Shown here one piece after another: positions 14,018 through 32,216 of a DNA stretch of 64,000 nucleotides. Positions within the stretch are counted from its first letter, which is position 1; every line of letters begins with the position of its first letter. Source of the stretch: an uncultured archaeon (GTDB lineage: Archaea > Asgardarchaeota > Lokiarchaeia > Sigyniarchaeales > SOKP01); assembly GCA_964508365.1 (NCBI GenBank), contig CAZDTP010000012.1, positions 1 to 64,000 of the forward strand, read 5' to 3'. Both the position numbers and the translations under genes were made by a program. The notes under the pieces were generated by a model that saw nothing but the letters and a program-made list of their open reading frames with translations, was not told the origin of the DNA and made no database searches.

Positions 14018-14290
14018 GAGTCTTTTTAACTCTAATTTTTATTTTCGTAAATTTCATTCTTTTGTATAAAGCAAACAGGAGATTCAATCCTAGGTCAGCA
14101 ATACGTATTATTCCTAAAATGATAAAACCTACTGAATTTTTTGGCCTAAATTTGATCACACACTTCAAGTTGGATTATTTATTATAGATTAGATTATAGT
14201 AATTTATAAAGATGTCGACCAAACCTGGCTACACTATTGAATAAAGAGGAGATTCGTTCTCAACAATCTTCACATCATTTTACAACCGTT

Positions 14291-14731: not shown

Positions 14732-14806
14732 TCAAACTCCAACAACTCTACCTATACAAGAGCCATAAACTTTTTTATAATATTCCTTAAATGTTATTTC
14801 TTTCAT
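14732..14806 (-). pseudogene. Truncated 5' copy of the ADP-ribosylglycohydrolase gene
   Basis: MKEITFKEYYKKVYGSCIGRVVGV* versus MKEIRFKYYYNKVFGSWIGRVAGD (17/24 aa identical, 13 nt differences in 72). Confidence 0.85.
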
Positions 14807-14832
14807 GATTTTTTTGATTATTTATTTGAAAA

Positions 14833-15690
14833 TTAACGTAAGGGAAATTTTGGGTCTCGTTTCTCGATGTAAGCATTAAATGCTTCCCACACATCTGCAG
14901 AACTACCTCCTAAAACTTGCCCGCGGTTTTCTAATTGGATCATTGTTTCTAAACTCGGAGAATCAAGGGATAGATTAATCGCTTGTTTTGTCATCCGTAA
15001 GCCCAAAGGGCTTTTTGTGAGCATTTCTCTCGCCATTTCCATCGCTGAATCAAACAATTTCTCTTCCTCGACAATCTTCAAAACAAAACCTATTTTGGTA
15101 GCTTCTTCAGCGCCGAAAAACCTTCCTGTATATAATAATTCGGATGCTCTCGACAATCCTATGAGACGCGGTAGAAAATAACTACTCCCCATATCCGCCC
15201 CTGTTAACCCGATATTTATATAACCCGCGTTGAATTTCGCATTCTTTCCAACTATCCGAATATCAGCAGCCATTGCGATAGAAAAACCCGCTCCCATTGC
15301 AGCACCTTGGATTACAGCAATAATCGGTTGCGAAATCTTTCGCATCTTAATGATAAGATCAGAAATTCTCCATTGGTAATACATAAAGCTTTTAACCACT
15401 TCGGGAATATCTAAGAAATAAAATTTCTTGAGATGATCCGGCTTCTTTTTTGATTTCAATACGCTGGCATCGCTCAAATCTTGACCGGCATTAAAGACCT
15501 TTCCTTCTGCTTTCATAATCAGGACCCGACAATCAAGATTTGTCATTAATGCATCTAATAATGAATGAAGGTCCTCAACCATCTGAAAAGATATAGCATT
15601 AGCTTTTTCTGGTCTGTTGAATGTTAAAATTCCAATACCGTTTTCTTCCAATTCGAACTTTATCGTTTCAAATTCCATACTCTTACACAT
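14833..15690 (-). CDS. Enoyl-CoA hydratase/isomerase family protein
   Basis: LTFNRPEKANA, FNAGQDL, IAVIQGAAMGAG and GADMG motifs. Confidence 0.92.
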   Translation of the reverse strand: MCKSMEFETIKFELEENGIGILTFNRPEKANAISFQMVEDLHSLLDALMTNLDCRVLIMKAEGKVFNAGQDLSDASVLKSKKKPDHLKKFYFLDIPEVVKSFMYYQWRISDLIIKMRKISQPIIAVIQGAAMGAGFSIAMAADIRIVGKNAKFNAGYINIGLTGADMGSSYFLPRLIGLSRASELLYTGRFFGAEEATKIGFVLKIVEEEKLFDSAMEMAREMLTKSPLGLRMTKQAINLSLDSPSLETMIQLENRGQVLGGSSADVWEAFNAYIEKRDPKFPLR

Positions 15691-15973: not shown

Positions 15974-16031
15974 CTGGTATGGTCTAAAGCTTAAGAATTA
16001 TAGAATAAATCAGAAATATAATAAAAAAAAA
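15974..16031. repeat. 58-bp direct repeat, copy 1 (copy 2 at 19061..19118)
   Basis: CTGGTATGGTCTAAAGCTTAAGAATTATAGAATAAATCAGAAATATAATAAAAAAAAA versus CTGATATGTTCTAAAGCCTTAGAATTATAGAAAAAATCATAAATATAATAAAAAAAAA; 6 mismatches. Confidence 0.85.
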
Positions 16032-16049
16032 GATTTAATTAATTAAACC

Positions 16050-18917
16050 TTATTCTGGTGTCGCTCGTTTTTTCATAAATATGTAGAGACCAGCTATGAC
16101 TGCAACTCCTCCGACTACAGAAACAACAATAATAACGATAAGAATAGTTAGATCATCCCCAGCAGGGGGGATGCTTTTCGTTATCGTTAATTCTTCAAAA
16201 GATAGATTTCCTATAGTATCATTCGCATAGAAAGTAATAGTTATTGAGCCTTCAGATAAAGCCGACCATGCTGTTTGGTCAATGGTAGCATTCGTAGTAA
16301 TAGCATGAGTGGTCACACCTCCATCAAGAGAATACCATATCGAGTCTAAATGGTCATCTGTAATCGTAATAATGAAAGCAGGAGCACTAACACCAAATTC
16401 ACTCCCGGAAGAAGGTGAATTGACAACGATAACTGGCCCTATAGCATCTTTTACGATAATTACATCCTCAGATGTTTCATGTCCTAACATATCATTCGCA
16501 TAGAAAGTAATAGTTATTAAGCCTTCAGATAAAGCCGACCATGCTGTTTGGTCAATGGTAGCATTCGTAGTAATAGCATGAGTGGTCACACCTCCATCAA
16601 GAGAATACCATATCGAGTCTAAATGGTCATCTGTAATCGTAATAATGAAAGCAGGAGCACTAACACCAAATTCACTCCCGGAAGAAGGTGAATTGATTAT
16701 GATAATTGGACCTGTAATATCTTTTACGATATTTACATCAGCAAATCCAATATATCCTGGTATATCAGAAGCATAGAAGATTAATGTAATCGTACCATCA
16801 GATAAGGCATCCCACGCAGATTGATCAATCGTTCCGTTATCTGTAAAGGTGTAATTATTTAATCCCCCATCAATAGTATACCACATTTCATCTATATAAT
16901 CGTCTGTAATTCTCACATTAAAAGAGGGGGCAGTAGTACCAAATACACCACCGGGATCAGGTGAATTAATCGCTATCGATGGGGCACCGTCTTCTGCTAT
17001 GGGTAAATAATCTATACTTCCAGCAGAACCACCTATATATATGTATGGATCATCTACAATTCCATCTTGTGGGGTTGTATCTGGACTAGTCCAATTATCC
17101 CAGTAATTACCAATTGCGGTGCTATTCCAATTGTTATCGGTTCCATCATCAATAGCATGTTTTTCATTTTTCAGAAAGAAATTTCCATAGATGGAGTTAT
17201 TATTACTAGAGTCTAAATATATCCCGCTTTGGGTATTGTTACATGCGGTGTTTCCTGTAATGTTATTGTAATGAGAAGTTTGTAAAGATATCCCATCACC
17301 GTTATAGTTTGCGGTGTTTTTAGAAACCGCGTTGTAATCACTATTAAATAAATATATCCCTATATCCCCAGCATGGTCATTTGCAGTGTTTCCTATAATA
17401 TTATTATAATCGCAAAACCATAAAACAATCCCATGACCATTATCGTTTGCGGTGTTTCCCGAGATACTATTATCATCGCAATTATCATTTAACCATATTC
17501 CATAATCGCCATTACCATTTGCGGTGTTTCCCGAGATCGTATTATTATTGCAACTATTTTCTAAATATATCCCATAATAGGTATTATTGCTTGCGGTGTT
17601 TCCCGTAATATTATTATAATCACAATCGTATAAATGTATCCCGTGCAGATTATTGTCATTTGCAGTGTTTTTTGTTATAGTATTGTATTCACAATCTTCT
17701 AAATATATTCCAAATTCGGTATTATTGTATGCAGTATTTTCAGAGATAGTGTTATTTTTGGCATGTTCATGTATATACATTCCATAAGCGGTGTTATTAT
17801 TTAATGTATTTCCTGTAACTGTGTTATTATTACTTCCCTCTAAGCGTATTCCGTAATAATTATTATCGTTTGCTGTATTTCCGATGATACTATTGAAATC
17901 ATCGTAGAATACTTCTATACCAACATTATTTCTATTTACAATATTTTTCACGACAATGTTATTATCACAATCACTTTCTAAGAAAATCCCATCAATATTA
18001 CCACTTCCAGTATTTTCCGTAATATTATTGTAATCACTGAAAGTTAAATATATTCCCGCAATATTATTGTCGTTCGCAATATTTCCTGAAATTGTGTTGT
18101 AATGTCCATTATTAATTTCAATTCCATCATTGTTATTATCATTCAAATTGTTTTCCGTTATAGTATTATTATCACTAAACCACAATAAAATACCATTATC
18201 GTTGTTATTATTTGCTTTATTTCTATAAATTTCGTTGAATTTGCTATTACTTACTTTTATCCCGTTTGTATTGCTATATACGGTGTTGTTGTAGATAATA
18301 TTATTATCACTAATTGATAAACTGACTCCAATTACAGAACTATATGCAGTATTATCTATTACTTCACTATAATTACTCTGAATTAAATATATAGCGTTCA
18401 TAGTATTATAGACTGTGTTATTAGCAATAATTATATCTTCACATTCGTTTAAATAGACCCCAGTACCCATTCCATTAATAGCAATATTATTATCACTTAC
18501 TAAACCATTTGTAGTATTATCTAAGGTTATCGCTTTTTCTGAGCCTATTGAGATGGATCCGTCCCAGAAGAATGTGCAGTTTTTAATTATGAAAGATATA
18601 TTATTTGAATTGCTTATCTTAATACCATCTGCCAAACTATCTATCCCTAATGTGTGATCTTGAATTATATAAGGATTTTCTAAAGTTCCTAATCCAGAAC
18701 ACCACACTTGATTTTCTGCCCATGTCCAATTATTCCAACTTCCAGGCAGATTGTCAATTGTGATATTTTCATACGTTCCAGAAGTTCTTATCTTAGGTTG
18801 CACATAAATGTTAGAATTAGTATTACTTAAATATCCAGAATTTTGTATAAAGAAAAATCCTACAATGAACATCAATGCAATAATACTAGTAATAAACTTT
18901 CGTTGATTCGGTTTCAT
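16050..18917 (-). CDS. Membrane-anchored NosD/PbH1 beta-helix surface protein with C-terminal Ig-like repeats
   Basis: N-terminal signal/TM, many N.I..N.A..N...GI.L repeats, three SxWYSLDGG modules, C-terminal TM and basic tail. Confidence 0.9.
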   Translation of the reverse strand: MKPNQRKFITSIIALMFIVGFFFIQNSGYLSNTNSNIYVQPKIRTSGTYENITIDNLPGSWNNWTWAENQVWCSGLGTLENPYIIQDHTLGIDSLADGIKISNSNNISFIIKNCTFFWDGSISIGSEKAITLDNTTNGLVSDNNIAINGMGTGVYLNECEDIIIANNTVYNTMNAIYLIQSNYSEVIDNTAYSSVIGVSLSISDNNIIYNNTVYSNTNGIKVSNSKFNEIYRNKANNNNDNGILLWFSDNNTITENNLNDNNNDGIEINNGHYNTISGNIANDNNIAGIYLTFSDYNNITENTGSGNIDGIFLESDCDNNIVVKNIVNRNNVGIEVFYDDFNSIIGNTANDNNYYGIRLEGSNNNTVTGNTLNNNTAYGMYIHEHAKNNTISENTAYNNTEFGIYLEDCEYNTITKNTANDNNLHGIHLYDCDYNNITGNTASNNTYYGIYLENSCNNNTISGNTANGNGDYGIWLNDNCDDNSISGNTANDNGHGIVLWFCDYNNIIGNTANDHAGDIGIYLFNSDYNAVSKNTANYNGDGISLQTSHYNNITGNTACNNTQSGIYLDSSNNNSIYGNFFLKNEKHAIDDGTDNNWNSTAIGNYWDNWTSPDTTPQDGIVDDPYIYIGGSAGSIDYLPIAEDGAPSIAINSPDPGGVFGTTAPSFNVRITDDYIDEMWYTIDGGLNNYTFTDNGTIDQSAWDALSDGTITLIFYASDIPGYIGFADVNIVKDITGPIIIINSPSSGSEFGVSAPAFIITITDDHLDSIWYSLDGGVTTHAITTNATIDQTAWSALSEGLITITFYANDMLGHETSEDVIIVKDAIGPVIVVNSPSSGSEFGVSAPAFIITITDDHLDSIWYSLDGGVTTHAITTNATIDQTAWSALSEGSITITFYANDTIGNLSFEELTITKSIPPAGDDLTILIVIIVVSVVGGVAVIAGLYIFMKKRATPE
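16217..16696. repeat. Near-perfect intragenic duplication (207 bp x2, 273-bp period)
   Basis: 16217..16423 versus 16490..16696; I found one substitution. Confidence 0.9.
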
Positions 18918-19060
18918 TCTTAAGACCTTTTTATAAAAAGTATGTGGATTGATATTATTTCTTCTAATTTAAATATTATTAAAGACCTTTAAATTTAGGT
19001 TTCACTAGGAACCTTACTTCTTTTAGTCTAAATGATTAAAAAAAGAGATTTAATTAGAAA

Positions 19061-19118
19061 CTGATATGTTCTAAAGCCTTAGAATTATAGAAAAAATCAT
19101 AAATATAATAAAAAAAAA
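19061..19118. repeat. 58-bp direct repeat, copy 2
   Basis: Matches 15974..16031. On the minus strand both copies begin with a T9 tract just after a gene stop. Confidence 0.85.
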
Positions 19119-19144
19119 ATTTTGTTTTAAAATTTATAATACCC

Positions 19145-20602
19145 TTAGTTTTTATTAGATAGTGTACAATACAACGCAAAAACGAAGTAAGCTCCCATAG
19201 GAATCAATAGAATCCAAAATTCGCTTGGCAAGAAAATTTCGACTTGAAGAATCATCGAGATAAAGCTTATAATTAGAAAGCCCGTCCATATACTTAATAT
19301 ACGTGTATTTAGTGGTCTTTTAATGACAAAATGGTATATTATCGCAGCGATTGCATAAAGTATAATCACCATAAGCGGTATTGGAATCCAGAGTCCTTGT
19401 AACCAGAAGGTTAAAAACAACCCGCAAGGAAATAGAATGAAAAAATTGAGGTAATATAATATCCTTCTTGTTAAATCTTCTTGATGATCAATTTTATACC
19501 AGATTATTCCTAACCAAATAAATAGAATCCATGCAGTTACTAAATCGATTAGATCAAAAGGATCGAATGGAACATCCATTCCATAGTGAGTCCCCCAGTA
19601 AGCCGTGATCATCGCATATCCCAATATCTGGGTGAGCAAAATGTGATATGTCGATTTTCCGATTAAAGAAATTGTTCTCGAGATTTTTGCATTAGATGTA
19701 TTGCGTAAATAGTTAAGTGCAAGCAAGACTAGGAATGCGGAGTACGGAAAGACCAAAAAATGATAGTCTCCTCTTAGGAGAGGTGTGCCATTAAGCCTGA
19801 ATCGAAAGTCAAAAAATTGATAAGCAATTAGGTATACCAAGCTAATTGGAAATAATATCCACATGAAGCAATTTCTTTTTTCAGTAAGCTTATGACCAAA
19901 AGAAAACCACATTCCCAAACCTACTGCAGAAAGATAAAATAAGACGCTATTCATGAACAAGCTTAAGTAATGTGCTTCTTCCCAAGTTGTTATATCACCT
20001 ATAATGAAAAAAACAGTAATTTGCAGTACAATTTCCACGACAAAGGTTAAAATTAACGTTATTACTGGTTTTTTAGTAAAACCCCAATATAGTAATGGTA
20101 CGACGAGAATTGATTGCAATAAAACGGGGATGAACCAATTACCCGGTCCCCAAAAAGGCAGTATCAAATAAAACAGGTTAATAATTCCGTGTTCTGGGGA
20201 ATATTGAGTATCATACATTGCTATAAAATCGAATCCATACATAAATAAACCAATAAATGTTGATGCGGCATACAGAATAAGAAAAGGGACAATATAGCGT
20301 AAGATTTTCTTCTTAAAATAACTCCAAGAATATAATTGTTTTAATGATAAATCACCTTGTCCTCTAAAAGAATGCCCCATATTAAATCCAAGTATTACTA
20401 AAAAAACGGGTATGGAAATTCTTTCCCAGAGAGCGACCCCAATATCACTTTTGATGTTCCAAGAAACCATGTGATCAAAAATGACCAGAAATATCATTAC
20501 CGCTTTTAGAAAATCAATCTGAAAGAAAGGGGTTCGTTCTTCAAATCCTCTTGAAGAGGATAGTTCTTCTTGCTCAGCACTCTGAAATTTGAGATCATTC
20601 AT
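19145..20602 (-). CDS. Acyltransferase-3 (OafA-like) membrane protein
   Basis: IDFLKAVMIFLVIFDH, IPVFLVILG, WFIP, IGKSTYHILLTQ; many TM segments. Confidence 0.88.
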   Translation of the reverse strand: MNDLKFQSAEQEELSSSRGFEERTPFFQIDFLKAVMIFLVIFDHMVSWNIKSDIGVALWERISIPVFLVILGFNMGHSFRGQGDLSLKQLYSWSYFKKKILRYIVPFLILYAASTFIGLFMYGFDFIAMYDTQYSPEHGIINLFYLILPFWGPGNWFIPVLLQSILVVPLLYWGFTKKPVITLILTFVVEIVLQITVFFIIGDITTWEEAHYLSLFMNSVLFYLSAVGLGMWFSFGHKLTEKRNCFMWILFPISLVYLIAYQFFDFRFRLNGTPLLRGDYHFLVFPYSAFLVLLALNYLRNTSNAKISRTISLIGKSTYHILLTQILGYAMITAYWGTHYGMDVPFDPFDLIDLVTAWILFIWLGIIWYKIDHQEDLTRRILYYLNFFILFPCGLFLTFWLQGLWIPIPLMVIILYAIAAIIYHFVIKRPLNTRILSIWTGFLIISFISMILQVEIFLPSEFWILLIPMGAYFVFALYCTLSNKN

Positions 20603-20753
20603 CCTTTACATCATTAATTTTTCATTAGAAATTTTGTTAGAAATTTTATAATAACTTTTAACTACACCTAATTATTAACACTAAAGGAGTCCGATTTTTA
20701 GAATTTAAGAATATTTTAAAAAAAAAAAGATTGGATAAAAAATTAAATTGTTC

Positions 20754-21086
20754 TTAATAGATTCCAGCCGAACTTGAAGGAATCAAAAGAATGTCGTCGC
20801 CATTATGAAGATGATAATCACTTAATTGGTCAGCCTCGTCCATCGTAACACCACCAGAACTGAGGTGAAATTCGTCGGGATCAAGCCCGAATAGATTTCC
20901 AAGGGTTCTTTTTACATCACTCACCCGATTAGAGTCATTCACGGTCAACTTTTCCTTCTTTTCTCCCGGTCCTATAGTTGACATGAAGTAAAGGGTCGAC
21001 TTTTTACCTGTAGACGGTGTCTTGGAAGCAGGAGTTTTTGATTTAACGGGTTCATATTCATCATCTAAATCTTCTTCAAAACTCAT
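20754..21086 (-). CDS. Ubiquitin-like (beta-grasp) protein with acidic N-terminal extension
   Basis: LTVNDSNRVSDVKRTL...HLSSGGVTMDEADQLSDYHLHNGDDILLIPSSSAG-IY follows the ubiquitin pattern (LSDY..G..I.L..G). Confidence 0.8.
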   Translation of the reverse strand: MSFEEDLDDEYEPVKSKTPASKTPSTGKKSTLYFMSTIGPGEKKEKLTVNDSNRVSDVKRTLGNLFGLDPDEFHLSSGGVTMDEADQLSDYHLHNGDDILLIPSSSAGIY

Positions 21087-21255: not shown

Positions 21256-22674
21256 TTAGAGCCCTAATTCTTTCAACCGATTTTTATTGGTTAAGGCTTG
21301 TTCTTTAGTTATCTTGTAAGTAAAGTAAATAATTAATGTGGCAAAAATATTTATCACCAAAGGAATTAAAGACATTTGAAGATTGAGCCCTTGTTTCACG
21401 ACAGGATCAGTAGCAGGAATAATACTGGCATCAAAACCAGTAATCGCTCCTACAATGGTAAATAATGCTACTTGGAAGAAATATGTAAAAGCAGTAAAAA
21501 CGCGTAATATTCCTAAGAAAGATCCTTCTTCACGCTTATTTGTATTGACAACAGTATTGTCAATCGCTTCTGCTCTTGCGAGAGTTGCAATAACGCCAAA
21601 ATTTGCAGCCGTAGGAATCCCAGCAATTGAAGTTACGAGGAATAACCCCTCAAAACTGGTAACAAAGAAAAACATTACATAAATGAATGTGTGTAAGGTT
21701 AAACTTATCAGATATGTTTTTCTGATGCCAATTTTCTTTGCAAACGTAGTCCATATCGGAGCAAATATAACGGTTAACACACCATATCCTAAACTTGGTA
21801 ATGCACCATATTCAATTGGCAAATTCAAATAATATATGATAAAATAATTCATGCCATAAAGCATGCAAGCTCCTGCAGTCCCCCATAATAGAAATGAGAA
21901 TATTAAACCGACCCATACTTTATCTTTAAACATTTTTTTTAGAACTTCCTTAAATGGAGAAGAGGTTCTTCCTGTTCGGTCTAATTCTGCTCTGAATTCT
22001 TTCCTTGCTTTACTTTCACGTATGCTTCTTATGTATGGAATAAATATCAAATATGCTATAATGACGAAGATAATAGTTCTTATTAAGTATGCCGGTTGGT
22101 TTAAAGCACCTCCAAAAATCGCTAGTAATATCGGGGAAATGACTGAAAAACTAATTGTTACTAAACCCCCAATCACAGCTCCATAAGCACTAGCTTTTCT
22201 TCGAGAAGAGTCTTCTCGGAATAAATCAGGATATAGTGAAACGTGATTTACTTCGAGGAGTGTTAGGAAACTTTCGTAAATTACCATCATAATTATTAAC
22301 CATATAGCATTCGTTACTACGGCTGATATATCTGCAACTTGAACAAAGGATAAGATTAAGAATATTGGTCCTATCAGTCCTCCAACTAGTATCCATAAAA
22401 AACGCTTACCAAATCTGGCAGTAAATTTTTTTGATCTATCAGCAAAATATCCAATAATTGGGTCATTAAAAGCATCTACGAGAGAATAAACCAAAAAAAT
22501 GAGAGTTACGATAATTTGAGGAATAAATAGCACAGAAGTCGCATAAAACTGCAGATTTCCCCACATCATGAATAATAGAGTCGTTACAGGTGCTTGCAGC
22601 GAAAAACCAATGACTTTTTTAATTGATATTTCTCCAAATCGTGTATCTGGTAAATCATCTGACATATAGTTCAC
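21256..22674 (-). CDS. MFS transporter, GPH (glycoside-pentoside-hexuronide) family
   Basis: DAFNDPIIGYFADR..RFGKR, REEGSF motifs; about 12 TM. Confidence 0.9.
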   Translation of the reverse strand: MNYMSDDLPDTRFGEISIKKVIGFSLQAPVTTLLFMMWGNLQFYATSVLFIPQIIVTLIFLVYSLVDAFNDPIIGYFADRSKKFTARFGKRFLWILVGGLIGPIFLILSFVQVADISAVVTNAIWLIIMMVIYESFLTLLEVNHVSLYPDLFREDSSRRKASAYGAVIGGLVTISFSVISPILLAIFGGALNQPAYLIRTIIFVIIAYLIFIPYIRSIRESKARKEFRAELDRTGRTSSPFKEVLKKMFKDKVWVGLIFSFLLWGTAGACMLYGMNYFIIYYLNLPIEYGALPSLGYGVLTVIFAPIWTTFAKKIGIRKTYLISLTLHTFIYVMFFFVTSFEGLFLVTSIAGIPTAANFGVIATLARAEAIDNTVVNTNKREEGSFLGILRVFTAFTYFFQVALFTIVGAITGFDASIIPATDPVVKQGLNLQMSLIPLVINIFATLIIYFTYKITKEQALTNKNRLKELGL

Positions 22675-22786: not shown

Positions 22787-22939
22787 TTAATCAGGGATAT
22801 GTATTGAATGATCTTCTTTGATATAATATAGAAAGATCTTAGTCTTAGCCTCCTCAACTCCAGGCATATTACGGCGTTTTTCAATAAGATTCATAGAATC
22901 ATGATGATTTAGATATTTTGCCATAGAGAATATTGGATA
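22787..22939 (-). pseudogene. Orphan 3' end of an Lrp/AsnC gene, diverged copy
   Basis: YPIFSMAKYLNHHDSMNLIEKRRNMPGVEEAKTKIFLYYIKEDHSIHIPD*: 33/50 aa identical to the C-terminus of 28073..28558. Confidence 0.88.
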
Positions 22940-23085
22940 TTATAAAGATACGATAATTTTAAAAAAAATATATCGAGTGTTAAACATTTGGTTTTATTGA
23001 TTAAAATGATTCACCTATATTACTAATTTCAACAAAAAGACTCCTTCTTTAAGAAATTTTCTTAGCCATATAAGGTAATTTTACC

Positions 23086-24018
23086 TTACAATGGAAAATA
23101 AAGTTTAGATAATGGATGATCCTCAGAATCGAATTTGTTTTTAAAGTTCATTTTTGAGTTTCTACGTATCATTGCGTCCACTATCGCAGTTGAAGGAAAT
23201 ATATACTCTGCTTTTTCTAAAGTGCCATAAATAATGAAATCAGTACCCATAGCTAATGCTAAAGAAACCCCAGCCGCTTCACAAGCTCCTTTAAAATTTC
23301 CCTTGAAAATCTCATTTTTAATACACCATCTCCCTATTACTCCCACTGGAGCTGTTCCCGTAGGTAACCCAAATTCTTCCTTTAATCTATAAATATTTCT
23401 TGAAGCGACCCCTATAGTGGGAATTTCAAACACACTAGTGAAGAGTAGCAATTTTTTTAAGCCAGCTCTTTGAGCTTTTTCGATTAAACCCTCCTCTTTA
23501 TCCTTTCCTTTAAGTATATCGATTAAACCTGCAATTCGGGGATTTCTTGGATTAAATGATTGAATTATCGCGGATTCAACATTACATTCTAAGATGCCAT
23601 TAAGTTCTTCTTCTGTAAGTGTGTAATTAATTGAGGTGTAGATCGCTCTATTATTTAAACCAATTTCCCTAATAAATTTCATTAGGTTTATTCTTATTTC
23701 CGAAGAAACAGCATTCAATAAAAATGGGTCCGTTGATATTTCTGCAACAAATTGGACATATTTCTGGAGAGCGAGTTCACTTGTTCCGGCTATATCGAGC
23801 ATACATGGATTTCCAGATTGATCGGAGAGTTCCTTTTGCATATATATTAACTCTTCAGTTTTTTTCTTATCAAATAAACCTTTCTTCTCATCTTTTACCT
23901 TTTTATCTCCTTGATGAAATATACTCCCAATCAATACGGTGGGATTTTCTCCAACTGTTCCTCCAAGTTTAATTCCGTCTATATCTAACACTTGCTGTTC
24001 TTTTCTAAAATTTATCAT
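23086..24018 (-). CDS. mtrH: MtrH-family methyltransferase (H4MPT/THF), stand-alone
   Basis: GGTVGENPTVLIGSIFHQG, NPCMLD, MGTDFIIYG motifs. Confidence 0.8.
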   Translation of the reverse strand: MINFRKEQQVLDIDGIKLGGTVGENPTVLIGSIFHQGDKKVKDEKKGLFDKKKTEELIYMQKELSDQSGNPCMLDIAGTSELALQKYVQFVAEISTDPFLLNAVSSEIRINLMKFIREIGLNNRAIYTSINYTLTEEELNGILECNVESAIIQSFNPRNPRIAGLIDILKGKDKEEGLIEKAQRAGLKKLLLFTSVFEIPTIGVASRNIYRLKEEFGLPTGTAPVGVIGRWCIKNEIFKGNFKGACEAAGVSLALAMGTDFIIYGTLEKAEYIFPSTAIVDAMIRRNSKMNFKNKFDSEDHPLSKLYFPL

Positions 24019-24117
24019 TTTACTGACCTAATACGAAATTGTAATTTCAAATATAAAAATATCATAATATTAATTAATTTTATTCAATCCTTTGAATATC
24101 TATTGATATGATCGGAA

Positions 24118-24408
24118 TTAAGTTTTAAAGTCTATAATTCTCGAGCCGTGAAATAATCTTACTATTTGAATTTTTTTTCCTAAAATTCTATAAATGATAC
24201 GATAATTTCTTAAGATTAATTTTCGAATATTAGGTTCATCGAGCTCGGGCATTATTTTTCCCATTTTCGGAAACTAAATTAAATTTTCAACTTTCTCACG
24301 TACTTGTTCATAAAACGAAAGAGCATATTCAAGTGAGTCTTGAACAATATTATCAATAATCTCAATCAAATCATTTTCTGCTTTTAATGACCATTCTATT
24401 TCAGCCAT
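24118..24408 (-). pseudogene. RelE/ParE toxin interrupted by an in-frame TAG (codon 45, 24276..24274)
   Basis: MAEIEWSLKAENDLIEIIDNI...ENLI*FPKMGKIMPELDEPNIRKLILRNYRIIYRI...IVRLFHGSR. The start overlaps the antitoxin end. Confidence 0.9.
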
Positions 24409-24596
24409 TGTTCCAATCTCTTTTTAGCATTTTCCATGACTTGTTCGTGAGGAAGTACTCTACTTTGCTCAATATCTTCAATACCGGAGATGATCTTTTT
24501 TTTTACATAAAGATGATACATAATATCATCAATTTTAGCATTTTCTGGCAATTTTTTTATCAATTCTATAATCTCTTCCTTAAGATTAGAAGTCAT
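24396..24596 (-). CDS. Putative type II antitoxin
   Basis: 66 aa (LPENAKIDDIMYHLYV..I..GIEDIEQSRVLPHEQV), directly upstream of and overlapping the RelE/ParE pseudogene. Confidence 0.85.
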   Translation of the reverse strand: MTSNLKEEIIELIKKLPENAKIDDIMYHLYVKKKIISGIEDIEQSRVLPHEQVMENAKKRLEQWLK

Positions 24597-24697
24597 AGTT
24601 TCTCACTATCTAAATAACTATTTTCCCTTTTATAATTTCTCTAAAGCTGAATAGGTTCATTAAATTGAACTCAAACTCTACAAATTACCAAACTATA

Positions 24698-24868
24698 TTA
24701 GGATTTTTGCTCTGGAATTATAATCGTGTGATCTTCTTTTATGCTATCCAAGACCAATTGAGTTTTTACCTCCTCTACTTCTGGAAGATTACGAAGGTTC
24801 TCGATAAGATTCATTCAATCATTGTGATCTAAACATTTAGCCATTATAAATATGGGATAATCTCCCGT
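24698..24868 (-). pseudogene. Orphan 3' end of an Lrp/AsnC gene, close copy
   Basis: TGDYPIFIMAKCLDHND*MNLIENLRNLPEVEEVKTQLVLDSIKEDHTIIIPEQKS*: 25 nt differences in 171 versus 28073..28243. Confidence 0.95.
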
Positions 24869-25022
24869 GAGTAAAAAAGATAGTTAAAGTTGTTAATGTT
24901 AACAGTACTATAGATTTTTATCCCCCTGATTTAGGAATGAAGATATAAAAGTCATCATAAAATGAAAAAAAAAATAAAGAAGTTATTATGGACTGAGTTG
25001 TTGCTCCATGAAGAATCAAAGT

Positions 25023-27761
25023 TTATTCCGTCCTTTTTTTTAAAAAGAACATTATTACTGCGATAATGATCAGGGAAACCACGCTAACCAAACTGATTAT
25101 CAAGCCGAGCATAAAGACAGGATCTAAAGCACCATCTTGCGGTATTTTTCCGGGATAATCGTTCGGATTCAGGGGATCGGTTCCTGATGCCAGCTCAATA
25201 CCATCATAGTGCCCATCATCGTCCGAATCGTCATCGAGTGGATCCGTGCCGTACTTGATTTCAAACGCATCATTCAGGTTATCTAAATCGGTATCAATCA
25301 TCGTTGGGTCGGTTCCATGGCTGAGTTCATCGAGATCATCAAGCCCGTCATAATCGCAATCTCCAATGGTTATACCTAATAAATCAATGACCGCTTGGAT
25401 GGCATCAATATCACCTGTAAGGGTGTCATTAATTTGACTTAAATAAACCTCATTTTGCTGGGCCAACGCAAGAACGGTCTGAATGAGAGTGGCATTTCCT
25501 TCCACGTAGGAAATGATATCCATTAACTGGGTGGCATTTCCTTTGATATAGGTGAAGAGGAGATTGATTTCGCTATTAGCCTCTCCAAGCCACCCGATCA
25601 CTTGCTGTAGTAGCGTGGCATTCTGCTTTAACTGAAAAATGATGTTATCAAGTAGAGTGGTATTTCCTTCTGTCCATTCAATCAAGTTTTGGATTAAAGT
25701 CCAGTTCCCAGCCAAGTCTGTTACCACATCCATGAGGATCGTCGCATTTCCTTCAAGGTATGTGAAGAGTAGGTCAATCTCGTCATTGGCATCTCCAAGC
25801 CAACCGATCACTTGTTGAAGTAAAGTGGCATTTTGCTCTAACTGATATATAATGGTATCGATGAGACTTGCATTTCCATTGGTCCAATCTATTACTTTTT
25901 GGAGAAGCGTCCAGTTGCCTTCTAGATATAGCATGAGAGCATCAAAATCGTTCTTCCAAATCTTCGGAAAATCATCGGAATTTGTCGCACTGCTGCCATA
26001 CTCAAGTTCATAGCCATCTAAGAAATTATCACCATCAGTATCTACTGAAAAAGGATTAGTGCCCAATAATAATTCAATGCTATCCAGTAATCCATCCCCG
26101 TCCCAATCAAAGTCTTCGGGAGAAATAAAAAAGTTTTCAAAAATGTAGTTATCAGTTGTATTACCTTCAAATTCTTTATCATTATCCCATATCCAATTTC
26201 TATAGAGAATATTATGTTCTGAATCTTGAAAATCCACAGCAATTTGATTATTGGCTAAAATATTTCTAGTTATGGTACTATAATTGCTGTATTCCAAGAA
26301 AATACCTTTATCCCCATTCGAACTGCAATTATTCTCCAAAACCGTGTTATATTCTGAAGTATATAAGTAAATGCCATGCTCTCCATTCGAAGTGCAGTCA
26401 TTATTCGAGAACATGTTATAATTACTCGACGAATAGAAACAAATCCCGTAACATCCAATTGAGGAGCAATTATTCCTTGAGATCGTATTATTGTTAGATG
26501 AGTATGCGGAAATCCCGTGATCTTTTGAAGAACAGTTGTTCCCCGAAATCTTATTGTTGTCCGAGAGAATTAATCTAATCCCGACATTATTATTCGAAGT
26601 ACAGTCATTTTTCGAAACCGTATTATAATTACTCGAGGAATACATATGAATCCCACAAATTTCGTTTGAAGTACAATCGTTTCCCGAAACCGTGTTATTG
26701 TTCGAAGAATCTAAGTAAATTCCTTCATCATTCGAAGTGCATATGTTCTCTGAGATCGTGTTATTACTCGAGGAATGAACATAAATTCCCTGATAATTCG
26801 AGGAGCAGTTATTCTCCGAGATCATGTTATTATTACTCGACAGGGGGTAAATTCCCCTGTAATTCGAAGAGCAGTTATTTCTCGAGACTTCGTTATCGCT
26901 CGCGCTTTGAAAGAGAATACCATTTTCACTATTTGATGAGCAAGTGTTCATTGAGATCTCGTTATTGGTCGACCCATCTACTGCAATCCCAGTATGTCCA
27001 TTCAAGGAGAATATGTTCCTTGAGATCGTGTTATTGCTGGATCCAGATACCACGATTCCCCAATTCAAATTCAAGGAGCAGTTGTTCCCCAATATGTATA
27101 TTTTATTCGAGGTATATACATAAATTGCATGACTATCATTCGAAGTGCATTTGTTCTCTGAGATCGTGTTATTGCTCGAAGATTGTAATAAAATCCCAAC
27201 ACTATTTGAAGTGCATGTGTTCTCTGAGATCGTATTATCATAGCTTGAATTCCTCAGATAAATTCCTAAGTAATTCGATGAGCAGTTATTTCCCGAGATC
27301 ACTATATTAGTCGAAGCTTGCAAGTAAATCCCATCTTGATTATCATGAATGGTATTATTATAGATTATAGCATTTCTACTATTTTGTAGATGAATTCCCG
27401 CATCATAAATATCCGTTCCAGAGTTGAAAAGCGTGCAGTTTTTAATTACAAAATATACCGTTGTTCCAGAAATATATAAACACGATCCCATCCCTTCCGC
27501 GTCAATCGTCCAGTTGGCGATGATATACGGATCATTCTCCGATCCATCTCCCCCTACAACACCGTTTTCAGTGGTAAATCCAGAATTGCTCGAGATTAGT
27601 ATGGGAGCGTGGGTAAGACCACTGATTTTCAGATTGCGATTAAAAGGCAAGGAGTAAGTATCTATAGTTTCTCTTGTAATATCATTCCCAAAGTCCCAGA
27701 TGAAGGTAAGTAAACCGAAAAAGATTAATCCACCGAGTAAAATGATTTTCATTTTTTTCAT
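25023..27761 (-). CDS. Surface protein: PbH1 beta-helix, DxDxDG Ca-binding repeats, 14-residue-repeat stalk, C-terminal TM
   Basis: 22-aa N.CSSN..GI repeats; DWDGDG/DTDGDN/DSDDDG motifs; twelve 14-aa units with a 210-bp higher-order repeat. Confidence 0.88.
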   Translation of the reverse strand: MKKMKIILLGGLIFFGLLTFIWDFGNDITRETIDTYSLPFNRNLKISGLTHAPILISSNSGFTTENGVVGGDGSENDPYIIANWTIDAEGMGSCLYISGTTVYFVIKNCTLFNSGTDIYDAGIHLQNSRNAIIYNNTIHDNQDGIYLQASTNIVISGNNCSSNYLGIYLRNSSYDNTISENTCTSNSVGILLQSSSNNTISENKCTSNDSHAIYVYTSNKIYILGNNCSLNLNWGIVVSGSSNNTISRNIFSLNGHTGIAVDGSTNNEISMNTCSSNSENGILFQSASDNEVSRNNCSSNYRGIYPLSSNNNMISENNCSSNYQGIYVHSSSNNTISENICTSNDEGIYLDSSNNNTVSGNDCTSNEICGIHMYSSSNYNTVSKNDCTSNNNVGIRLILSDNNKISGNNCSSKDHGISAYSSNNNTISRNNCSSIGCYGICFYSSSNYNMFSNNDCTSNGEHGIYLYTSEYNTVLENNCSSNGDKGIFLEYSNYSTITRNILANNQIAVDFQDSEHNILYRNWIWDNDKEFEGNTTDNYIFENFFISPEDFDWDGDGLLDSIELLLGTNPFSVDTDGDNFLDGYELEYGSSATNSDDFPKIWKNDFDALMLYLEGNWTLLQKVIDWTNGNASLIDTIIYQLEQNATLLQQVIGWLGDANDEIDLLFTYLEGNATILMDVVTDLAGNWTLIQNLIEWTEGNTTLLDNIIFQLKQNATLLQQVIGWLGEANSEINLLFTYIKGNATQLMDIISYVEGNATLIQTVLALAQQNEVYLSQINDTLTGDIDAIQAVIDLLGITIGDCDYDGLDDLDELSHGTDPTMIDTDLDNLNDAFEIKYGTDPLDDDSDDDGHYDGIELASGTDPLNPNDYPGKIPQDGALDPVFMLGLIISLVSVVSLIIIAVIMFFLKKRTE

Positions 27762-28072
27762 TTTTTCATCTCATTTTTCCATTGTTGTTTAATTTTCTAA
27801 TTCTTGAGAAGAATTATTCTTACATACTATTTAACTTCTTGAGGAAATCAAAATTCATTACGGGTAATGTAAATGTTAAAAAAAGACAGATCAGAAATGT
27901 TTTTGCATATTTCTTCCTTAAGAGATTAATTAGTTTAATTTTTAGCACCAGTTAATTGTTTGATTTTTGTCAAAAAATCTAAATGAAATTAAGAAAGTAT
28001 TGTATATAAATAGTAACTAATCTTACTTTGACAATCAAGACTGCAAATTATCTATTAAAATTTAGATGTGAT

Positions 28073-28558
28073 TTATGATTTTTGCTCAGGAATGATTATA
28101 GTGTGGTCTTCTTTAATTCTATCCAAGACAAGTTGAGTCTTTACTTCTTCTACTTCTGGAAGATTGCGAAGATTTTCTATAAGATTCATTGAATCATTAT
28201 GGTCTAAGCATTTAGCCATAATAAAGATAGGATAGTCTCCCGTAATAATATAAGCGTATTTAATTTGATTCATTCGTTCGATTTCTTCTTTAATTTGCTC
28301 AAGAGGTCGCCTTGAATTAACTCTGAGCGATGCCATCACCATTTCACGATATCCTAATTTTCGACAATCAATGATAGCCATGTATTTTTTAATTAGAGTT
28401 TCTTCTAATTTTTGAATTCTAGTTCGAATAGCTGTTTGACTCATATCTGTCTTTTCAGCTACTTCCCGAATGGTCATTTTACCATCTTCTTGTAATAATT
28501 CTAAAATTCGTTTATCAACATTATCTATGTTACCATTTGTCAAGCTTACTGATACCAT
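28073..28558 (-). CDS. Lrp/AsnC family transcriptional regulator
   Basis: DNVDKRILELLQEDGKMTIREVAEKTDMS..AIRTRIQKLE HTH, followed by a RAM domain (ITGDYP). Confidence 0.92.
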   Translation of the reverse strand: MVSVSLTNGNIDNVDKRILELLQEDGKMTIREVAEKTDMSQTAIRTRIQKLEETLIKKYMAIIDCRKLGYREMVMASLRVNSRRPLEQIKEEIERMNQIKYAYIITGDYPIFIMAKCLDHNDSMNLIENLRNLPEVEEVKTQLVLDRIKEDHTIIIPEQKS

Positions 28559-28807: not shown

Positions 28808-29032
28808 ATGGCTGATAAAACATTAAATGCAATCGGTTTAAAATGTCCCATGCCAGTTTTAAAAACGAAGAAGGAACTGAAAGGAATGACTTCAGGGCAG
28901 GTCTTAGAGCTTATTGTCGATGATAAAGGAGCTTTAAAAGACATTCCAGCCTTATTAGGGAAAACTGGGGATGAATTACTCGAAACTAATGAATCTGATG
29001 ATCAAGTAGTTTTCTTGATTAAAAAAGCATGA
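28808..29032 (+). CDS. tusA: TusA/SirA sulfur-carrier protein
   Basis: LNAIGLKCPMP (CPxP motif). Confidence 0.92.
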   Translation: MADKTLNAIGLKCPMPVLKTKKELKGMTSGQVLELIVDDKGALKDIPALLGKTGDELLETNESDDQVVFLIKKA

Positions 29033-29060
29033 ACTTGATAATTTATTTGAGGGACGAGCG

Positions 29061-29429
29061 ATGACGACATATACATTCTTTATTAGTACAGAACCTTATA
29101 AATTTGAGGTTACAGATTCGCTAATTGAACTTTGTAAGGCTATCATAAAAAAGGGAAACTCCATCAAGGGATTATTCTTTTTTGGATCGGGTGTCTACAA
29201 CTTAAAGGGAGACATTAGTGCTGGAGCAACGATACGCAATTTACCTAAAAAGTTACAAGATTTTGCTCTTGAGAACAATATTCCTGTATCGGGTTGTAGT
29301 ACATGGGTAAGTTTAACTGGTCTAAAGGAAGAGGAATTTATTGAAGGTGCTACTGAAGAAGGGTTAGGTGACTTTTCAAATTGGTCAGTAGAATCTGATA
29401 AAATAATAGTTTTTGGAACGGGGGGATAA
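29061..29429 (+). CDS. dsrE: DsrE/TusD-like sulfurtransferase subunit
   Basis: STEPY...GLFFFGSGVY...GCSTW; Cys at the expected active-site position. Confidence 0.75.
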   Translation: MTTYTFFISTEPYKFEVTDSLIELCKAIIKKGNSIKGLFFFGSGVYNLKGDISAGATIRNLPKKLQDFALENNIPVSGCSTWVSLTGLKEEEFIEGATEEGLGDFSNWSVESDKIIVFGTGG

Positions 29430-29431
29430 TA

Positions 29432-29800
29432 ATGGTGGAATCAGTAGTAATTATAACAGACCAATCACCCGTAGGTAAGAATTCTGCAGCAGAAGCAATT
29501 AGGATTGGATCTGGTTTTGTGGCGTTAGGAGAATATATCAATTGTCAAGTGGTATTTATGGGTGATGCGTTATACTTGTTGAATAAAAATGCAGTTCCTA
29601 ATGCTATTGACATGGATTCTAATGATGAGGTACTTGAAATCGCAGATTTATCAGATTTAGAGTTGTACATAATAGATACAGACTTGAAGAATGCTGGCAT
29701 GACAGAAGATGATCTAATTGAATATGAGAGTTTAAAGATAATATCTATTGAGGAATTATCTGATTTAATAGATCAAGCAGATACATGCTTTAGATTCTAA
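29432..29800 (+). CDS. dsrF: DsrF/TusC-like subunit
   Basis: QSPVG..SAAEAIR...VFMGDALY motif; position after dsrE. Confidence 0.75.
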   Translation: MVESVVIITDQSPVGKNSAAEAIRIGSGFVALGEYINCQVVFMGDALYLLNKNAVPNAIDMDSNDEVLEIADLSDLELYIIDTDLKNAGMTEDDLIEYESLKIISIEELSDLIDQADTCFRF

Positions 29801-29813
29801 TGGAGGGAAAAAG

Positions 29814-30143
29814 ATGGAAATAGTATACTTATTCGGATTTAGTGAAAGGACAGGGAACCATTTAGAAAGGCTATTGCCCTTATTAAAAGTGCAAATTCAG
29901 AAAGGAGCAAATGTCGGTTTAGTCTTTATACACGATGGAGTGATTGGATTAAACACCAATGGATCAATTCCAAGCAAATTGGAAGAATTATTAAACTCTA
30001 ATATTACATTAAAAGCCATGGTTCCAGATATGAAAGCACGAGGAATACCCATTGAGAGCTTGCATGATAAAATAAAACCAATTGAATATGATGAGTTAGT
30101 AGAAATATTAGATAATACTCAAAAAATAATTTCATGGATGTAA
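29814..30143 (+). CDS. dsrH: DsrH/TusB-like subunit
   Basis: VFIHDGV...DMKARG...YDELVE...ISW motif. Confidence 0.8.
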   Translation: MEIVYLFGFSERTGNHLERLLPLLKVQIQKGANVGLVFIHDGVIGLNTNGSIPSKLEELLNSNITLKAMVPDMKARGIPIESLHDKIKPIEYDELVEILDNTQKIISWM

Positions 30144-30267
30144 AATAATCAAAAATTAAAAATTTTTTAATAATTAATAAATCAAAAATAACGGTCATAG
30201 ATTTGACGTCAATAATTAAGAACAACAAAAAAATTAAAAATAAAATAAAAAATAGAAGTGAAAAAAT

Positions 30268-30684
30268 ATGGGAGAAACAATAAACTATATAGTAAAGGAC
30301 AAATCATTCGAAAAGTTCGCAATGATGATGCTCCTAGGTACCACAGCAGACGCTATGGAAACAAAATCCAACTTTTTCTTCACCTTTTGGGGTTTGAACT
30401 TATTAACCAAAAAGTTTAAACCTAAAGTTGCTGGAATGCCTACACCTATGAAGGGTATGGGTGCAAAGATTTTTAGAAAAAGGATGGCAAAGTTTGGAAT
30501 TGAAGATCCATGGGGTATGATTAAAGACGCTGTCGAAAATGGTAATATGAAATTATTTCCATGCCAAATGACAATGGATTTAATGGGAATTAAGCGAGAA
30601 GATATGCTTGATTTTGTTGAAGATCCTGTAGGTGCCGCAACATTCTTAGAAATGTGTGAAGGCGGAAAAATGGTCTCACTATAA
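30268..30684 (+). CDS. DsrE2/DsrE3-family sulfur-carrier protein
   Basis: FFFTFWGL...PCQMTMDLMGI...VGAATFL motif. Confidence 0.88.
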   Translation: MGETINYIVKDKSFEKFAMMMLLGTTADAMETKSNFFFTFWGLNLLTKKFKPKVAGMPTPMKGMGAKIFRKRMAKFGIEDPWGMIKDAVENGNMKLFPCQMTMDLMGIKREDMLDFVEDPVGAATFLEMCEGGKMVSL

Positions 30685-30728
30685 ATAAATTTTTAAAAAT
30701 TTTTTTTTTAATTCAAATTAATGAAATA

Positions 30729-31295
30729 GTGGAAAAAATGTCAGAAACAAAAGAAGAACACCGAGAATTTAAGACAGATGAAGATTTCGATAAAGATTAT
30801 TTTAAAAATATTGAAAGAAAGTCAAATATTTGGCAATGTATTCAGTGTGGAACGTGCACGGCCAGCTGTGAGTCTGGACGTTGGACTGCACTTAAAACAA
30901 GATTAATCATTAGAAAAGTATGTTTAGGAGATCTTAGTGTTCTTAAAGACCCCGATATTTGGCTTTGTACAACTTGTTATCAATGTTATGAACGCTGTCC
31001 TCGTGATGTAAGGCCAACTGATGTAATAATGGAATTAAGAAATTACGCTACTAAATTAGGAAATATTTCGCCATCTCACCGAGCGGTTGTTGGCTATTTA
31101 AAGAATTTTGGACATGCCGTACCTATAAATGACGAGATTAGAAAACGAAGGGTCGAATTAGGATTAGAAGAACTCCCTCCAACTGCGTTTAAATATAAAC
31201 AAGAGGGAGATGATAAAGATTTAAAGAAATTTGAAGAACATTTGTTTGATCTTCCTCCAGTTAAGGAGGAAAAAAAGAAGGAAGAGGAGAAGTAA
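30729..31295 (+). CDS. hdrC: Heterodisulfide reductase subunit C
   Basis: CIQCGTCTASC and WLCTTCYQCYERCP. Confidence 0.93.
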   Translation: MEKMSETKEEHREFKTDEDFDKDYFKNIERKSNIWQCIQCGTCTASCESGRWTALKTRLIIRKVCLGDLSVLKDPDIWLCTTCYQCYERCPRDVRPTDVIMELRNYATKLGNISPSHRAVVGYLKNFGHAVPINDEIRKRRVELGLEELPPTAFKYKQEGDDKDLKKFEEHLFDLPPVKEEKKKEEEK

Positions 31296-31298
31296 GAA

Positions 31299-32216
31299 AT
31301 GGTAAAAGAACATACATTTTCATTTTTTCTCGGCTGTCTCATGCCAAATAGATATCCCGCAATTGAAAAAGCAACAAAGTTTGTAATGGGGAAACTTGGA
31401 TACGAGCTTTTGGACATGGAACGTGCTAGTTGCTGTCCGGCTCCAGGAGTATTTCGATCATTTAATAAATTTGATTGGATGGTAGCAGGTGCTAGAAATC
31501 TCTGCATTGCTGAAAAACTCGATGCAGACATTCTTACGGTTTGTAATGGATGTTTTGGAACATTACAAGAGATTAACAAACACTTGAAAGAAAACGAAGA
31601 TCACAGAGAATTAGTAAATGAAAAATTAAAACTGCTCGGAGATTACGAGTTTAAAGGTACGATTGATGTCCGGCACATTGCTGAAGTATTAGGGTACGAA
31701 GTAGGCCCATGGGGCATAGAAGATCTAATTACACGAAAAGTAAACGCGCATGCTGCTGTACATTATGGGTGTCATTTTCTAAAACCTACAAGAATTCGAG
31801 AGATTGAAAGCTCAGAAGGACCTACCATCATCGAAGATTTTATTGAGGTATTAGGAGTAGAATCTGTTAGATTTAAGGAGCAGTTAACTTGTTGTGGTGC
31901 TGGTGGAGGTGTAAAAGCGTATTCTGGTGATACCAGTATGACGATTTTTGGAGAAAAAATGAAAAATATTGACGAAGTTGAGCCAGATTTTATTTTGGAT
32001 ATATGTCCTTTCTGTCATTTACAATTTGAGACGGGACAAGATTATCTAAATAAAAATAAGGGTTGTAATTACGATTATCCAGTTATTCATCTTTCCCAAC
32101 TCGTTGCTTATTGTATGGGTATGGACCAAGAATTTGTTGGTCTTCAATATCAAATGATGGGAAAGGATTACATTTTTGGTGGAGAAGAAGTAAAAAAAGA
32201 AGAGGGGTCGATTTAG
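31299..32216 (+). CDS. hdrB: Heterodisulfide reductase subunit B
   Basis: Two CCG domains: GC...CCPAPG...CNGC and HYGCH...CCGAGGG...CPFCHLQF. Confidence 0.95.
   Translation: MVKEHTFSFFLGCLMPNRYPAIEKATKFVMGKLGYELLDMERASCCPAPGVFRSFNKFDWMVAGARNLCIAEKLDADILTVCNGCFGTLQEINKHLKENEDHRELVNEKLKLLGDYEFKGTIDVRHIAEVLGYEVGPWGIEDLITRKVNAHAAVHYGCHFLKPTRIREIESSEGPTIIEDFIEVLGVESVRFKEQLTCCGAGGGVKAYSGDTSMTIFGEKMKNIDEVEPDFILDICPFCHLQFETGQDYLNKNKGCNYDYPVIHLSQLVAYCMGMDQEFVGLQYQMMGKDYIFGGEEVKKEEGSI

Follow-up and report, generated by a model that had tools for sequence, protein, structure and literature searches.

The prophage e14 and phage 21 integrate into the 3' end of the Escherichia coli icd gene (Hill et al., 1989, as described in PMC13626634); the gene thereby acquires from the insert a new 3' end that differs from the original mainly at synonymous positions, and the displaced C-terminal fragment is left as a pseudogene on its far side. 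Here we describe a locus of similar outward form in an uncultured archaeon of the Lokiarchaeia. The stretch that we analysed (the window, 64,000 nucleotides) comprises the first 64 kb of contig C12 (CAZDTP010000012.1) in a 4.07-Mb metagenome-assembled genome (MAG) of 149 contigs with an estimated contamination of 3.65%. In it, an intact gene for a regulator of the Lrp/AsnC family, lrp, is followed by two further, orphan copies of its own 3' end, with unrelated genes between them. An earlier note, made from the letters of the window, had read this arrangement as elements that integrated twice in tandem at the 3' end of lrp, with a recombinase that acts in trans or has been lost, unless the mechanism is a different one. 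We suggest instead that the resident ends were probably displaced one after another at a surface-protein island by homology-anchored import of DNA from relatives, without any new mobile element. As regards the icd precedent, e14 is a prophage that brings its own system of site-specific recombination and crosses over at one fixed site, whereas the lrp segments consist of 1.9–3.4 kb of ordinary genes with no recombinase or phage genes, and their breakpoints vary.

A second precedent is found in the effector–immunity and Rhs arrays of type VI secretion systems (T6SS), for which sequential displacement by a process like homology-facilitated illegitimate recombination (HFIR) has been proposed (Kirchberger et al., 2017, PMC5361080; Jackson et al., 2009, cited there). 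In those arrays, as at lrp, a conserved upstream anchor is followed by stacked orphans that come from different lineages, each import pushes the earlier part along, no integrase is present, and the surrounding locus often recombines. The tip of the T6SS and Rhs genes, however, is the variable payload, a toxin domain with its immunity gene, whereas the tip of lrp is conserved and is exchanged for an equivalent allele with unrelated genes behind it. The present case differs further in its archaeal host, in having a regulator as the anchor, and in the occurrence of the same scars at many housekeeping genes and at 5' ends.

Two other processes share some of these traits. Insertion with long target duplication (Furuta et al., 2010, PMC2853133) also involves small gene sets that lack a mobility gene and are bounded by direct repeats of tens to hundreds of bases. 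Its repeats derive from a single target copy and are nearly identical (e.g., 44/46), whereas the lrp copies differ by 15%, almost all of it silent, and must therefore have had separate histories as working genes. Replacement flexible genomic islands (Lopez-Perez et al., 2014, PMC4033161) resemble the lrp island in occupying the same position in all relatives, in encoding exposed surface proteins, and in having borders with raised, mostly synonymous divergence and recombination switches; they are swapped by two homologous crossovers and carry no duplicated gene ends, whereas the lrp tails require one non-homologous joint per event. The elements described in Asgard archaea integrate at tRNA genes, some of them with integrases, as in the case of HeimV1 (PMC8813620), and the lrp locus is unlike these.

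Results

In what follows, F denotes the last 171 nt of the intact lrp (28073..28243), A and B denote the two orphan ends, and relatives within the genus are numbered G0xx; the lrp islands of about 20 species of the genus were compared. The lrp product combines an AsnC-type helix-turn-helix domain (PF13404, 1.5e-14) with an AsnC_trans_reg/RAM domain (PF01037, 1e-10), as the definition of the Lrp/AsnC family asks, and the part displaced in the orphans encodes the second half of the RAM domain. Orthologues in G001, G023 and G018 have 82–84% amino acid identity. In every examined genome that has lrp at this locus, the gene is divergently paired with TusA-DsrEFH-HdrCB genes, a conserved pairing that fits the earlier suggestion that lrp is the probable regulator of the adjacent Hdr operon. 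On the minus strand, lrp is followed by a 311-nt spacer, a gene for a NosD-like protein, orphan A, an antitoxin-like gene with a split ParE gene, an MtrH gene, orphan B, an MFS transporter gene, a ubiquitin-like gene and an acyltransferase gene (Table 1). All open reading frames (ORFs) of at least 60 aa within 19–29 kb are accounted for, and among them none encodes a recombinase, in agreement with what the earlier note had said of the two segments.

Orphan A aligns with lrp nt 316–486 without gaps over 171 nt at 85.4% identity, and the match sets in abruptly at ACGGGAGA and runs no further than the stop codon. Between the T-G-D codons and the stop, A and the intact end differ at 25 nucleotides, of which 23 are synonymous, one changes AGA to AGC (R to S), and one changes TCA to TGA (nonsense). 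Orphan B, at 67–75% identity to lrp, has accumulated numerous non-synonymous changes and contains an early stop codon. Its match to lrp sets in at TATCC or immediately before it, some 9 nt further 3' than that of A, a boundary that is uncertain by about ±10 nt given the decay. When lrp was compared with the whole genome by BLAST, the extra matches were A (E 2e-50) and B (6e-9), with nothing else below 0.1. The best match of B is the lrp end of G005 (75%), with which it groups weakly in a tree of the tails. Alignment and BLAST thus place all three 3' ends where the earlier note had put them, its tally of 23 synonymous, one R-to-S and one nonsense difference was reproduced exactly, and its remark that both orphans begin near the same codon (nt 316 for A, about nt 325 ±10 nt for B) holds.

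The pattern of substitution between F and A is informative about the past of the orphan. pS is 0.68 and pN is 0.015, and in this stretch a random change would be synonymous about 20% of the time. Under that null model, 23 or more silent changes among 25 have a probability of ~1e-14 if every change was neutral, and of 4e-4 under the most generous assumption, that half of the changes fell in a constrained copy and were all silent. Because the substitutions are almost all synonymous, A must have terminated a working lrp during almost the whole of its divergence from F and was displaced only recently. The claim of the earlier note that this orphan diverged as a functional allele under purifying selection is borne out, and we regard both orphans as displaced ends of once-functional lrp alleles. 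The same pattern rejects, for A, duplication in situ followed by decay. More generally, we consider it very improbable that the locus arose by local duplication, be it through tandem paralogues that lost their 5' halves or through a long target duplication (Nobusato/Furuta) that then diverged in place. Although a set of 107-nt repeats around another NosD-like gene of the window (16050..18917, described below) could be of this kind, the differences between such repeats would be neutral, and those between F and A are silent in 23 of 25 cases (P ≤4e-4). Moreover, the silent divergence between F and A is as large as that between species, the cargo differs between the segments, B belongs to another lrp clade, and none of the relatives carries tandem full-length lrp paralogues at the locus; three such paralogues, which the earlier note had named as the sign of simple decay, were looked for and are absent.

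Orphan A also retains its former surroundings. In G023, a full-length lrp is followed by 10 nt and the remnant of a toxin–antitoxin (TA) pair, and this sequence matches the DNA 3' of orphan A (91.5% over 106 nt), as it should if successive insertions each supplied a replacement end, as earlier proposed. The orphan and TA pair of G048 are likewise 80.8% identical, over 739 nt, to orphan A and the TA pair of the window. F and A share no identical run longer than 17 nt. Their large silent divergence may in part be a matter of survivorship, in that near-identical repeats on either side of an insert would recombine and the insert would soon be lost. A three-way comparison with G001 gave a run of nine F-matching sites flanked by A-matching ones (permutation p = 0.03); this hint of mosaicism, from a crossover inside the repeat, was too weak to use.

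The stretch from lrp to the ubiquitin-like and acyltransferase genes is a flexible genomic island that holds mostly NosD-like surface proteins, the TA pair and genes for transport or methyl transfer. The earlier note had advised comparing relatives for empty sites, and G053 has one: its lrp directly adjoins the ubiquitin-like gene, about 230 nt away. The island measures about 1.3 kb in G024 (lrp to ubiquitin-like gene), about 7 kb here and about 16 kb in G048, and the acyltransferase gene at its far border is 80–84% identical in G002, G005 and G008. The order in G048 is that of the window, namely lrp, a different NosD-like gene (36% identical), an orphan lrp tail and a TA pair, and its orphan extends back to about codon 88 and groups with the lrp clade of G048 itself. 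In two relatives a contig starts inside lrp: that of G009 (L053, G009:C526) starts 3 nt before the first codon of orphan A, and the other is from G019 (L052, G019:C83). These starts fit, and may reflect, an assembly break at a repeated tail, of which they are not proof.

Such contig ends show that the region is difficult for assemblers, and with a MAG of 149 contigs and an estimated contamination of 3.65% the window itself might be a chimera of co-existing strains that were joined at a shared lrp tail. We find this hardly credible, since the orphans start in mid-gene beside unrelated sequence, A carries a nonsense change and B is heavily decayed. In G048, a MAG of another species that was obtained independently, the lrp-NosD-orphan-TA order recurs with sequences of its own, and many other species are scarred.

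Extra lrp tails are found in G001, G010, G012, G014 (two), G017, G020, G023, G042 and G048. All reach the last ~20 codons of the gene, and their 5' limits lie at about nt 118, 262, 355, 397, 400–418 and 432–440, compared with 316 and about 325 in the window, although some of these limits were possibly trimmed later; only A and B nearly coincide. By the earlier note's own account, breakpoints that vary freely among genomes would refute its reading, and they do vary, over eight or more positions from nt ~118 to ~440. In G010 (L050, G010:C98, 9570–10371) a full lrp is followed, no more than about 5 nt past its stop codon, by a second open copy that starts at about codon 42, is 79% identical to the first and brings no cargo; the junction has AATAA-like similarity, which decides little in AT-rich DNA. 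A mobile element without cargo is implausible, and a misjoined allelic import fits this case. Two relatives depart from the usual layout in other ways. In G008 (L075, G008:C20:297000-316000), TusA and the 138-aa gene are present at the syntenic position, lrp and DsrEFH were not detected, and NosD-like genes and the TA pair lie alongside. G024 (L046, G024:C39:22401-39500; 4927-7178) has a paralogous lrp, 60% identical, that is divergently paired with distant homologues of HdrC/HdrB and lies 17 kb from the main locus.

The DNA on the other side of lrp was also compared with that of relatives. Overall, this right flank is closest to G048 (84–87%) and G014 (81%). In a sliding window, lrp is 81–85% identical to G001/G023 along its whole length and 62–76% identical to G048/G014; the TusA-DsrEFH stretch is roughly equidistant from all relatives (64–77%); at ~30180–30270 the identity with G048/G014 jumps from about 70% to 88–96%; and a patch of ~300 nt inside HdrC (30754–31048) is closest to G001/G023. 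The affinities thus switch at ~28600, at 30180–30270 and at 30750–31050. Because the flank is a mosaic of species affinities, homologous recombination acts at the lrp locus. In the tail tree, F and A fall with G001/G023, and the G048 orphan falls in the clade of G048 itself (the sequences are short and the support is moderate); the donors would therefore be close relatives, as homology-dependent import requires. A single import tract, from ~30200 through lrp to the joint, was rejected as the whole story, as A is itself G001/G023-like, not G048/G014-like, and the affinities of lrp and of TusA-DsrEFH differ.

Comparison of the genome with itself revealed that lrp is not alone. At least eight other genes show the succession of intact gene, insert and orphan 3' end, and there are at least 12 gene-end scars in all. 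Orphan 3' ends lie downstream of the genes for rpS7, carB, RNase H, a RadB-like ATPase, an OB-fold protein, a methyltransferase, an enoyl-CoA hydratase and one more gene, and four intact genes have orphan 5' ends upstream of them, which in the case of that RNase H gene extend to its TATA-box region. All of the scars have pN/pS below 1, and most keep their reading frame and stop codon. Their cargo includes ABC transporters, a JAB-like protein, membrane proteins, a PIN-type TA pair, a radical-SAM gene and a second NosD-like protein, with no recombinase among it. Scars at many genes and at both ends are not explained by a mechanism confined to a single gene, gene end or core sequence.

The scars lie on contigs C2, C4, C5, C28, C30, C34, C51 (two cases), C56 and C79, with inserts of 0.5–12 kb, and displaced ends were also seen at a CoA-transferase-like gene, at a long ORF on C34 and at a kinase-like gene. 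One orphan 5' end is in the window itself, at 14743..14815: its 73 nt are 85% identical to 13954..14026 and comprise the start codon and the first ~20 codons. The parent is an ADP-ribosylglycohydrolase gene (12902..14017, minus strand), the orphan lies about 0.7 kb upstream of it, and an enoyl-CoA hydratase gene (14833..15690) lies beyond. A third NosD-like gene (16050..18917, 955 aa) is flanked by 107-nt intergenic direct repeats that are 83% identical (15944–16053 and 19031–19137) and are situated just past the stop codons of this gene and of the acyltransferase gene. They look like the product of a surface-gene insertion that duplicated the intergenic flank.

The frequency is striking, with at least 12 scars in this genome and lrp tails in the majority of species of the genus, and raises the question of a dedicated system that captures cassettes at conserved gene ends, similar to an integron but with an unrecognised enzyme or an archaeal break-repair pathway. 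The recurrence of NosD-like cargo, in three cassettes of this genome that are flanked by duplicated sequence, would also agree with such a system. On the other hand, no gene, repeat or motif is common to the cassettes; scars are found at 5' ends, at 3' ends and in intergenic DNA, with scattered breakpoints; and ordinary recombination accounts for the mosaic flank. In comparison with integrons, the contig has no tyrosine recombinase, the repeated sequences are the tails of genes, and a cassette-end element common to the segments was not found: the spacers and the sequences that precede the orphans have no second copy in this genome. We regard a dedicated capture system as distinctly unlikely.

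The remaining alternative is that of the earlier note, with site-specific elements of the e14/phage 21-icd type inserted twice in an att core within lrp and an integrase that is supplied in trans or was lost. In its favour, the architecture of e14 in icd is the same, the intact gene running into the insert with a C-terminal pseudogene at the far end (PMC13626634), the starts of A and B lie within ~10 nt of each other, the G009 contig starts at the same codon, and the homology stops at the stop codon. A Phage_integrase search of 31 genus genomes found as a rule one conserved XerA-like tyrosine recombinase of ~315 aa in each, never on the lrp contig; in this genome the XerA-like gene, on contig C17, is the sole tyrosine recombinase. 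Searches of this genome for Resolvase (serine recombinase), rve and Cas1 found none, and its three DDE (DDE_Tnp_1) and three to four TnpB (Zn-ribbon) genes are all on other contigs. No integrase remnant was seen in or near the ~20 lrp islands or at other orphan-bearing loci. An lrp profile found no attP-like lrp tail in IMG/VR contigs, and PLSDB gave only distant full-length Lrp proteins, although absence from these collections is not proof. No motif common to the joints of seven genes was seen by eye, no formal motif search having been made. A dif-like palindrome at the joint was considered and rejected, as GGAnAnTnTCC is only a weak 11-nt imperfect palindrome.

These results, together with eight or more breakpoint positions among genomes, cargo without a phage or plasmid hallmark gene, the cargo-less case of G010 and the 5'-end orphans elsewhere, lead us to consider site-specific elements unlikely. 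Of the traits of an icd-type insertion, the replacement end and the displaced far end are present, and the recombinase, the fixed core and the free attP form were not found. The fixed att core ACGGGAGAYTATCC that the earlier note had assigned to an integrase is thus not upheld, given the variable breakpoints, the lack of a linked recombinase and of an attP-like copy, and the scars at both 5' and 3' ends of other genes; the genome-wide search for recombinases that it had suggested found nothing linked to the locus and no serine recombinase, and the same core was not found in IMG/VR or PLSDB. What stands of the tandem elements is that tails were displaced and new ends supplied; the site-specific integrase does not.

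The positions of the island's parts are collected in Table 1. The NosD-like protein next to lrp, the newest cargo if the order proposed below is right, contains a TSP3 repeat, a hydrophobic, signal-peptide-like N-terminus and a hydrophobic C-terminus that is a likely membrane anchor. Its gene contains, at 26300–27340, a long internal array of beta-helix repeat units of 66–69 nt (22–23 codons) that are 60–89% identical. No close copy of the gene was found in 41 genus genomes (DNA) or in genome and metagenome contig collections (protein-pattern scans): the DNA search with the NosD cassette gave only a 135-nt leader-like match, in G048, and the scans gave only partial relatives, at most 72% identical and with no lrp nearby. 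The leader-like stretch in the spacer (27841..28011) is 90% and 84% identical to positions 2648–2782 and 6945–7077 of the G048 locus (L070), where both copies lie just 5' of a large ORF, the second of which is shown to be NosD-like. The TA module has 86–92% DNA identity in at least seven other species, whose neighbouring genes are only 70–85% identical, and in species with visible context it lies mostly between lrp and the acyltransferase gene; ParE is broken in the window and forms an intact ORF of 96 aa in G048, and the antitoxin-like gene is intact in both. The nearest DNA relatives of the MtrH gene are at other loci in G007, G049 and G024, and the MFS gene is absent from the lrp locus of all relatives examined. 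No phage or plasmid hallmark gene is present in the cargo, which consists of ordinary cellular genes.

Table 1. Features of the lrp island and its borders in the window.
Feature	Position	Strand	Basis or remark
Intact lrp, 161-aa Lrp/AsnC regulator	28073..28558	-	domains; orthologues
Spacer, lrp stop to NosD-like gene	27762..28072	-	27841..28011 leader-like, twice in G048 island
NosD/right-handed beta-helix protein, 912 aa; putative newest cargo	25023..27761	-	domain search
Orphan A, lrp codons 106-161 + stop	24698..24868	-	ungapped alignment, BLAST
Antitoxin-like gene, 66 aa, no Pfam match; overlaps ParE start	24396..24596	-	
ParE toxin gene, broken: N-terminal 24274..24408, C-terminal 24118..24264	24118..24408	-	ParE_toxin profile positions 1-39, 45-88
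MtrH-family methyltransferase, 310 aa; second cargo gene, middle segment	23086..24018	-	PF02007, E 1e-77
Orphan B, ~lrp codons 109-158, decayed	~22787..22941	-	alignment, BLAST
MFS transporter, distal cargo	21256..22674	-	domain search
Far border: ubiquitin-like gene 20754..21086 + acyltransferase gene 19145..20602	19145..21086	-	conserved in relatives
Near flank, divergent from lrp: TusA, DsrE/F/H-like, 138-aa gene, HdrC, HdrB	28808..32216	+	synteny

Discussion

We suggest that sequential displacement by homology-anchored import is, on balance, the probable origin of the lrp locus. The sequences show the three copies, the selection history of A and its ancestral context, the variable breakpoints, the lack of recombinases, the recurrence of scars across the genome and the mosaic flank; from these we infer which donors took part, in what order the events took place, and whether the DNA came in by a linear or a circular route. 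DNA from a relative would arrive with that relative's lrp, or the 3' part of it, joined to different downstream genes, and would pair with the resident lrp or with the Hdr-side flank, which would act as the homologous anchor. The other end, having no homologue, would form an illegitimate joint, here inside the resident lrp, whether by HFIR of a linear fragment or equally by a single crossover of a fragment that had re-circularised. The result would be an intact lrp with the donor's tail, new cargo behind it and the cut-off resident tail pushed downstream as an orphan, and a dedicated recombinase would not be needed. Repetition of the process would stack the orphans, with the oldest furthest away. 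At the present locus B (with the MFS gene) would have been displaced first, followed by the A tail with the TA pair and MtrH, and the F tail with the NosD-like gene would have come last. As would be expected of displacement like that of HFIR, the anchor is conserved, syntenic and subject to recombination, and the orphans, which derive from separate lineages, lie in order of age (A 85%, B ~70%).

Several points count against this explanation. The donor arrangement, an lrp with an F tail leading into the NosD-like gene and no orphan, was not found in the 41 genus genomes or the contig collections, and for this reason the joints were not reconstructed and microhomology was not scored. The starts of A and B within ~10 nt, with the G009 contig 3 nt off, would have a chance of ~5–10% under random joints, by a rough estimate, and the import model leaves the frequent placing of joints inside the anchor gene unaccounted for. 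The recombinase searches were Pfam-based, and so blind to unrecognised families. We know of no DNA uptake route in these archaea. HFIR itself has been demonstrated only in naturally transformable bacteria, three of them, and is rare there (PMC6382021, PMC5361080).

If sequential import is correct, the locus is a well-preserved example of a recombination scar that is known but little studied, and its value is in the documentation of such scars genus-wide and genome-wide. A bolder extension, to which we give little credence, is that gene gain in the Loki group (Promethearchaeia) routinely proceeds without mobile-element enzymes, with break repair or template switching copying the DNA of relatives into conserved gene ends and always restoring the gene. 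Were it true, the stacked gene-end scars would not be rare accidents but the footprint of a main, lineage-typical route of horizontal acquisition, possibly one linked to polyploidy or to the fusion of cells.

The genomes of Asgard archaea are large and rich in acquired genes, yet recognisable mobile elements are few in genomes such as the present one (here three DDE, three to four TnpB and one Xer-like). The lrp locus and the at least 12 scars elsewhere in the genome would offer a concrete, integrase-free route of gene gain, in which genes enter behind a substitute for the end of a conserved gene, whose former end is left as a scar that can be dated. In annotation, orphan tails of this kind would be better read as recombination scars than as the att sites of missing elements. 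Read in this way, the scars give a legible order of events at a cell-surface island that is probably turning over under pressure from viruses.

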